In this document: piece by piece, positions 62,982-63,608 of the stretch
Layout: every line of letters begins with the position of its first letter
How positions within the stretch are numbered: position 1 is the first letter of the stretch
Source: Escherichia coli O127:H6 str. E2348/69
Lineage (GTDB): Bacteria > Pseudomonadota > Gammaproteobacteria > Enterobacterales > Enterobacteriaceae
Direction: 5' to 3' (one strand)
Assembly: GCF_000026545.1 (NCBI RefSeq)
Contig: NC_011601.1
Length of the DNA stretch: 64,000 bases
Program-made: the position numbers and the translations under genes
The notes under the pieces: generated by a model
The model's database searches: none
Told to the model about the DNA's origin: nothing
What the model saw: only the letters and a program-made list of their open reading frames with translations

Positions 62982-63608
62982 GGAAACTCCTTTTATTGGT
63001 GTTTGCTATTTGAATAAAAATACGCCAAACAGAGTGTTAACTGTGAATATGGAAAGAATCGTTGTAAGTACCCCGCTTAGGTGTCCCATTCTATTTTAGA
63101 GGTTCTCGTGCATATGGATTATGTTATCTGAAAGCTAACTTCCGCTTCCCGTTCACAGCGAACATTCATCTTTGTAAACCCGTATGATCCGTTTTTCAAG
63201 TGGCCATTCAGATACGGATTTTCACTTCCTTGACAGTGCATGACTATGCTGCATGAAATCGCATGATCGATTGAGGATCGTCTTTGCTCAGATCCGCCAG
63301 AACTGGCGGGCTTTTGCTCATGTCATGCATGTGCATGAAAACCACTGCATAAAGCGGGCAGGCGTGGCGGGGATACGAGCGCGCGCTAACTCTTGGCTTT
63401 GTTTCATAATCAAAAATGTGATCATTGAGATTATTCTTAAATTTGTGTTTGTCTATGAAATATCATTTCGCTTAACATTGTTTGAGTTAGGACTACATGA
63501 GAATAAAGAATGCTTTTACCCGTAAGTATTACATCGTGTGGCTTGTATCACCCCTACTGGCATTTGGGAGAGCGCAACCCTCATAGCGATGAACTATCAA
63601 GGCAGATG

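Follow-up and report, generated by a model that had tools for sequence, protein, structure and literature searches.

Packaging sites close to the one considered here have been described in several phages of the P2 family. Experimentally defined 19-nt 5' cohesive ends are available for 186, P2 and P4, a 55-bp cos core of P2-family phages has been outlined by Ziermann and Calendar (1990), and GGCGTGGCGGGGATACGAG has been published as the cos of SEN8, a viable temperate Salmonella phage, for which it was assigned during annotation; overhangs ending in ...ACGAG have been reported for SEN4/SEN5 and Smp131. Rousset et al. (2022) described the cos-adjacent interval from gpA to gpQ as a defence hotspot in P2-like phages and in P4-like satellites, and validated a DprA and PRTase pair from it against T7 and lambda. 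Dodd and Egan (1996) reported that, in a 186-related prophage, the retrons Ec67 and Ec86 take the place of the sequence from cos to a terminator. In P2 the old-tin mRNA starts ~150 bp left of cos. The structurally characterised ShosTA system of E. coli APEC O1 includes a ShosT of 424 aa, composed of an N-terminal pyrophosphatase and a C-terminal PRTase. The cos subtype, the cargo hotspot and the DprA-PRTase/ShosTA system that are encountered below are all, as such, already published.

In E. coli O127:H6 E2348/69, a ~34-kb prophage of the P2/186 type (186/Fels-2-like) lies between rcdA and ybjL, and the region of interest, positions 62982-63608 of the window (the whole 64,000-nt stretch of DNA that was analysed), is located within it. 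This region is, with high probability, a prophage cos packaging site situated between two exchangeable cargo slots, of which the right one carries ShosT/ShosA. Four parts can be distinguished along it, namely a spacer, the cos block, a leader and the 5' end of shosT (table 1), and the position of the block is that of a P2-type layout, between the replication and accessory genes (gene A) and the leftward portal-terminase operon. Terminase genes for a gpP-like ATPase and a gpM-like endonuclease subunit (L001 11100-12866 and 14921-15571) are annotated as intact. Window positions 62400-64000 correspond at 100% identity to NZ_LT827011.1 862400-864000, L001 8511-9086 to window 63510-64085, and L001 10051-10074 to 865050-865073 of the record.

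Table 1. Features of the cos region and of the neighbouring prophage genes, in window coordinates.
Feature	Position	Strand	Basis or details
Prophage span	integrase at 52446 to ogr, past the window end		
Replication endonuclease A gene	59452-61866	+	
Small hypothetical gene	62021-62209	+	
DinI-like gene	62220-62453	+	
DUF8087 gene	62646-62981	-	annotation
Spacer of the DUF8087 cassette	62982-63235		39% G+C; random identity to cos-sharing contigs
cos block, Fels-2/SEN8 subtype of the P2/186/P4 family	63236-63386 (151 bp)	+	contig identity profile, multiple alignment, phage BLAST
Three direct TGCATGA-type repeats	63237-63266	+	TGCATGA 63237, TGCATGA 63250, CGCATGA 63260
G+C-rich hairpin, TCCGCCAG-AA-CTGGCGGG then CTTTTGCTCA	63293-63320	+	terminator scan
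Inverted and direct TGCATGA pair, TCATGCA-TG-TGCATGA	63323-63338		at the left end of the 55-bp core
Equivalent of the 55-bp cos core: TGCATGAAAACC...CATAAAGCGGGCA, 19-mer, CGCGCGC	63332-63386	+	placed by alignment
Predicted 19-nt 5' cohesive end, GGCGTGGCGGGGATACGAG	63361-63379	+	identical to the published SEN8 cos
Predicted nicks	top 63360/63361; bottom 63379/63380		homology; cleavage in this prophage predicted
CGCGCGC, family-wide right edge of cos	63380-63386	+	12-sequence alignment
A+T-rich leader of the shosTA cassette	63387-63509	+	28% G+C
PRTase ORF (shosT), unannotated	63510-64085 (window ends at 64000)	+	ORF list
DprA-like gene (shosA)	64075-65049	+	324 aa
Portal gene	65074-66099	-	followed by the terminase ATPase gene (-)

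Elsewhere in the prophage, a perfect LexA-box consensus (CTGTAAATATAAACAG, 61962-61977) is located ~45 bp upstream of the operon formed by the small hypothetical and DinI-like genes, an arrangement that resembles the LexA-controlled p95/tum operon of phage 186. A gene for a KAP-family P-loop NTPase is present between the integrase gene and two tandem CI-type repressor genes (55128-56051 and 56102-56671; minus-strand region 53585-56671), and resembles a further insertion of accessory DNA at the junction of int and CI. The prophage also has its own Dam methylase gene (58598-59455).

The right and left ends of 186 were joined and the junction was compared with the window, giving colinear matches in which the first base of the 186 cohesive end stands opposite 63361. 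The original prediction had placed a match to the first 13 nt of the 186 cohesive end at this point (GGCGTGGCGGGGA, 63361-63373), followed by divergence, and the comparison agrees, with 13 exact nucleotides and 15/19 in total; the 13-mer has its sole exact copy in the 64 kb here. Similarity to the P2 and 186 cos regions extends well beyond this 13-mer, with gapless identities across the core (63332-63386) of 42/55 to P2, 43/55 to P4, 44/55 to 186 and 53/55 to SEN8, and identities across the 19-mer of 14/19 to P2 and P4 and 19/19 to SEN8. The position of the bottom-strand cut is an extrapolation, because the 3' third of the 19-mer (ATACGAG) differs from that of P2 and 186 (AAAGCAC or AAAGCAT).

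A common order of elements was evident in an alignment of 12 sequences (the window, four sister E. coli prophages, 186, P2, P4, SEN8, Cartapus, Fels-2 and SopEPhi), consisting of three TGCAT repeats, a hairpin (lacking in P2), TCATGCA..TGCAT(G/T)AAAACC, C.nAAAG.GGGC, the 19-mer and [C/T]GCGCGC. The last of these elements is present in 12/12 sequences, all of which diverge beyond it, and the same breakpoint after CGCGCGC occurs in E. coli prophages and IMG/VR contigs. Matches from the phage BLAST start at 63235-63238 and stop at 63385-63392. The cohesive ends or cut sites of P2 and 186 are annotated in their reference records, whose genomes end there, and the SEN8 record has as its last base the equivalent of 63360 and as its positions 1-19 the sequence annotated as putative cos. 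The suggestion of a diverged cos was thus right as to the cos, which is colinear with those of 186, P2 and P4 and has the 19-mer of SEN8, but not as to the divergence, this being the standard cos of the Fels-2/SopEPhi/SEN8 subgroup.

Scanning IMG/VR with the exact 26-mer 63361-63386 returned at least 120 viral contigs, which were registered on the 26-mer and scored at each position for ungapped identity to the window. Within 63361-63386 this procedure fixes the identity at 1.0, and all other positions are independent of the selection. Across the 120 matches listed, identity is 0.9-1.0 at most positions of 63236-63360 and is at the random level (~0.25-0.3) both left of 63236 and right of 63386. 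Within these limits the GCATG cores, two GATCG motifs, the hairpin arms and the final 30 bp before the nick are nearly invariant, with variable spacers between them. Taken together, the identity profile and the invariant elements delimit the cos site as a conserved island of 151 bp. Conservation is strongest at the nick site and the 55-bp core, rather than at the hairpin, and 4 of the 120 contigs listed match the window at every base of the 42 bp that precede the nick (63319-63360). The IMG/VR matches are mostly prophage-derived, and among those listed none is at the locus start.

The repeated GCATGA-type motifs that had been noted are a genuine enrichment. GCATGA/CATGCATG motifs are present in the block, four of the 11 copies of TGCATGA in the window fall within 63237-63338, and CATG occurs seven times in the 151 bp, compared with 3.3 per kb window-wide. 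The GCATG cores of the three direct repeats are nearly invariant and the sequences between them variable, and equally spaced TGCAT repeats are found in P2, P4 and 186; the repeats are candidates for recognition by the terminase. In the Fels-2-type block a pair of GATCG motifs spaced 11 bp apart (GATCGATTGAGGATCG, 63265-63280) is nearly invariant, and neither P2, 186 nor P4 has them.

The terminator-like hairpin with its T-run was likewise recovered, as CCGCCAG-AA-CTGGCGG at 63294-63309 followed by CTTTTGCTC, and the terminator scan reports it at 63293-63310 with seven pairs (five G-C) around a 4-nt loop and with CTTTTGCTCA as its tail. Related contigs most often have GCCCGCCAG-AA/TT-CTGGCGGGC-TTTT, compared with which the stem in the window is one or two pairs shorter, whereas 186 and P4 have a hairpin of differing sequence at the equivalent place, without a T-run, and P2 has no hairpin. 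Three double changes and a few G-T pairs were found among 68 distinct sequences in a covariation test, which does not discriminate because the stem is conserved mostly by sequence; with few compensatory changes, the hairpin can be read either as an RNA terminator or as a DNA site. It is probably a terminator that shields cos and the right cargo from rightward transcription, and possibly doubles as part of the packaging signal.

These comparisons suggest a model in which the terminase (homologues of P2 gpP and gpM, encoded just downstream) would recognise 63236-63386 and, by homology to P2/186, make staggered nicks on either side of the 19-mer, leaving 19-nt 5' overhangs. Nearly all of the predicted recognition sequence would lie left of the nicks, comprising five GCATG elements, the hairpin with its T-run and CATAAAGCGGGCA, with CGCGCGC alone to their right, and the hairpin would probably also halt rightward read-through into cos. 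The left slot holds the DUF8087 gene and its spacer, and the right slot the ShosT/ShosA toxin-antitoxin defence pair and its leader. A more tentative extension is that the five GCATG elements (63237-63266 and 63323-63338) and the hairpin might form a terminase-recognition array equivalent to cosB, and that the sharp block edges at 63236 and 63386 might be the sites of crossover when phages and P4-like satellites exchange defence cassettes on either side of cos. Among the papers searched, none relevant to the mapping of terminase binding in P2 cos was found.

The content of the left slot varies: P2 has old and tin in place of the DUF8087 gene, and further genes occupy it in SEN8, Fels-2, SopEPhi and Cartapus. 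The spacer between the DUF8087 gene and the block is not conserved in phages with another left cargo. By analogy with the old-tin mRNA starts of P2, this leftward gene presumably has its promoter and leader there. The encoded protein (111 aa, pI 4.05, 26 Asp+Glu) matches phrog_17127 at 2e-70 and has no PADLOC match; a DNA-mimic or anti-defence role is conceivable for this very acidic protein.

The right slot is equally variable. Of the 120 matches listed, 89 contigs have the portal gene on the minus strand right of cos; in these the cos-to-portal distance extends from 177 to 3382 bp, and six of these contigs are 'empty', with ~180 bp as in P2 and 186, including the portal-operon terminator. 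The sister E. coli prophages are the same as the window up to CGCGCGC and then carry a gene for a TIGR02391 protein, an ImmA/IrrE pair or other hypotheticals, all on the plus strand, and plus-strand genes are also found right of cos in SEN8, Cartapus, Fels-2 and SopEPhi. A plus-strand gene at this position, which the original prediction regarded as abnormal for a cos site since P2 and 186 have their portal gene on the opposite strand there, is accounted for by the hotspot for insertions that has been documented in the cos-to-portal interval. Between shosA and the portal gene, which converge, lie only 24 bp (L001 10051-10074, beyond the window) that contain a small hairpin, GCCTC-TTTTA-GAGGC, which could be a bidirectional terminator; this short interval stands in for the ~150-bp spacer and portal-operon terminator of the empty-slot prophages.

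The first gene of the right slot begins within the region of interest. The statement that 62982-63608 holds no credible ORF is correct for 62982-63509, but 63510-63608 are the first 33 codons of shosT, which starts at the ATG at 63510 and not at 63609. This stretch is assigned as coding because its 33 N-terminal residues contain invariant positions (CG.YHP...G.RNP...D.LS..MMD.KD) in homologues of ~50% identity, from SopEPhi and three viral contigs, each of which has an ATG at the equivalent place. The gene is absent from both RefSeq annotations of E2348/69, and PHROG family 7188 begins only at the internal Met34. Other small ORFs in the region (33-90 aa) were considered and are unsupported, the 90-aa ORF at 63253-63525 crossing the cos block into cassette-specific DNA to which other phages show no relation.

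ShosT has 191 aa and matches the PADLOC ShosT profile at 3.7e-14 (positions 62-211 of 237), with a weak Pfam Pribosyltran match (0.0018), and ShosA matches the PADLOC ShosA profile at 2.8e-70; the two genes overlap by 11 bp. SopEPhi orf14 and orf15 are 51% and 60% identical to ShosT and ShosA, respectively, and SopEPhi was the only match to ShosT in a tblastn search of the phage collection. The cassette is found in 7 of the 120 contigs listed, behind differing left flanks. Conservation of its leader is confined to close copies of the cassette (L083 and L054), distant copies being hardly alignable, and the leader presumably contains the cassette promoter and ribosome-binding site. A consensus promoter scan recovered neither a plus-strand promoter for shosTA nor one for the DUF8087 gene, its one minus-strand match (63459-63430) being fewer than the 3.6 expected from shuffles, and manual comparison of the shosT leaders of diverged cassettes gave no convincing shared -10/-35 elements.

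The original prediction had offered as an alternative that the region is a structured ncRNA, for example a retron msr-msd, working with the downstream PRTase gene. This was a reasonable idea because retrons occupy the equivalent cos-adjacent site in other, 186-related prophages (Dodd and Egan 1996); PRTases are also effectors of some retrons (Rousset et al. 2022), and hairpins and inverted repeats are present in the region. It now appears very improbable. An Rfam scan of 61800-64000 on both strands at E<=10 returned a single, spurious match to the eukaryotic snoRNA SNORD52 (62559-62612, E=1.9), outside the region, and fold z-scores against shuffles are near zero in all three sub-regions, at -0.31 to +0.59 (-0.31/+0.42 for the two strands of the left spacer, +0.59 for the leader). 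No reverse transcriptase is annotated in the prophage, where shosT and shosA fill the cos-to-portal interval according to the annotation and the ORF list of that interval, and the partner of the PRTase is the DprA-like ShosA, in a system that consists of proteins only. As for a1/a2-type repeats, the longest inverted repeat (I1, 24 nt, 79% complementary) joins the edge of the cos block to the shosT coding sequence, that is, two modules that assort independently, and the only conserved part of the region is the cos block, which is common to phages without the PRTase. Even less weight, close to none, can be given to the block being mainly a transcriptional insulator, with a terminator and operator-like repeats between early/SOS and late genes, and its resemblance to cos being secondary. 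The hairpin and T-run do score as a terminator, and the G-T pairs that the hairpin keeps would be wobble pairs in RNA, but P2 has the rest of the block without the hairpin, 186 and P4 have the hairpin without the T-run, conservation peaks at the nick site and core instead of at the hairpin, and the genome-record ends of 186, P2 and SEN8 fall exactly at the cos site.

Somewhat more plausible, yet still unlikely, is that the site is a dead cos relic in a defective prophage, the region then amounting to regulatory sequence between two accessory cassettes. Beyond the window, genes for the tail and baseplate, V, W, J and I (V-W-J-I-H block), and a tail-fibre gene are opposite in orientation to the other late genes (L001 18370-24138; record 873369-879137), and this block abuts a truncated pseudogene for virion morphogenesis (S-like) and adjoins a recombinase gene. 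The arrangement has the appearance of a large inversion, through which the prophage may be defective. It suggests that the prophage forms no particles unaided, and the prophage may accordingly never package its own DNA. The block itself is without decay, its 26-mer being that of the viable phages SEN8, SopEPhi and Fels-2 and the 42 bp left of the nick being those of the four contigs noted above, the portal and terminase genes are annotated as intact, and a related helper phage could use the cos in trans even if the prophage is defective. A cos packaging site between two exchangeable cargo slots is by far the better account of the region.

For annotation, this reading fixes a prophage packaging site together with its predicted nick positions, and supplies a defence toxin gene, shosT (63510-64085), that is missing from RefSeq for the reference EPEC strain. 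The 151-bp cos block, with a variable slot on each side, also constitutes a precise anchor for the mining of cargo in P2-like prophages.

Compared with known systems, the locus is closest to the cos regions of SEN8, Fels-2, SopEPhi and RE2010 (Felsduovirus) and of the E. coli phage Cartapus (Elveevirus). These share ~150 bp at 86-91% identity, with a 19-mer and CGCGCGC identical to those of the window, and they have the same layout of DinI-like gene, left cargo, cos, plus-strand cargo and portal gene, but the cargo on both sides of their cos is unlike that of the window. The cos sites of 186, P2 and P4 have an equal position, before the portal gene, an equal order of elements and the same GCGCGC right edge, whereas the last six bases of their overhang are unlike those of the window. 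In P2 and 186 the stretch from cos to the portal gene is free of cargo and consists of just ~170 bp with a terminator; the cargo of P2, old and tin, is on the left of cos, in the slot that the DUF8087 gene occupies here. As in the ShosTA of APEC O1, a DprA-like antitoxin is paired with a PRTase toxin, but the ShosT of the window is PRTase-only, lacking the N-terminal pyrophosphatase domain, and is a short-form relative, of the type that Rousset et al. (2022) named DprA-PRTase, so that the published ShosT mechanism may not transfer to it fully. The locus is one more instance of the hotspot described by the same authors, without substantive difference from it, and refines that description in two respects: the right slot begins immediately after CGCGCGC, and a second slot begins exactly at the left edge of the block.
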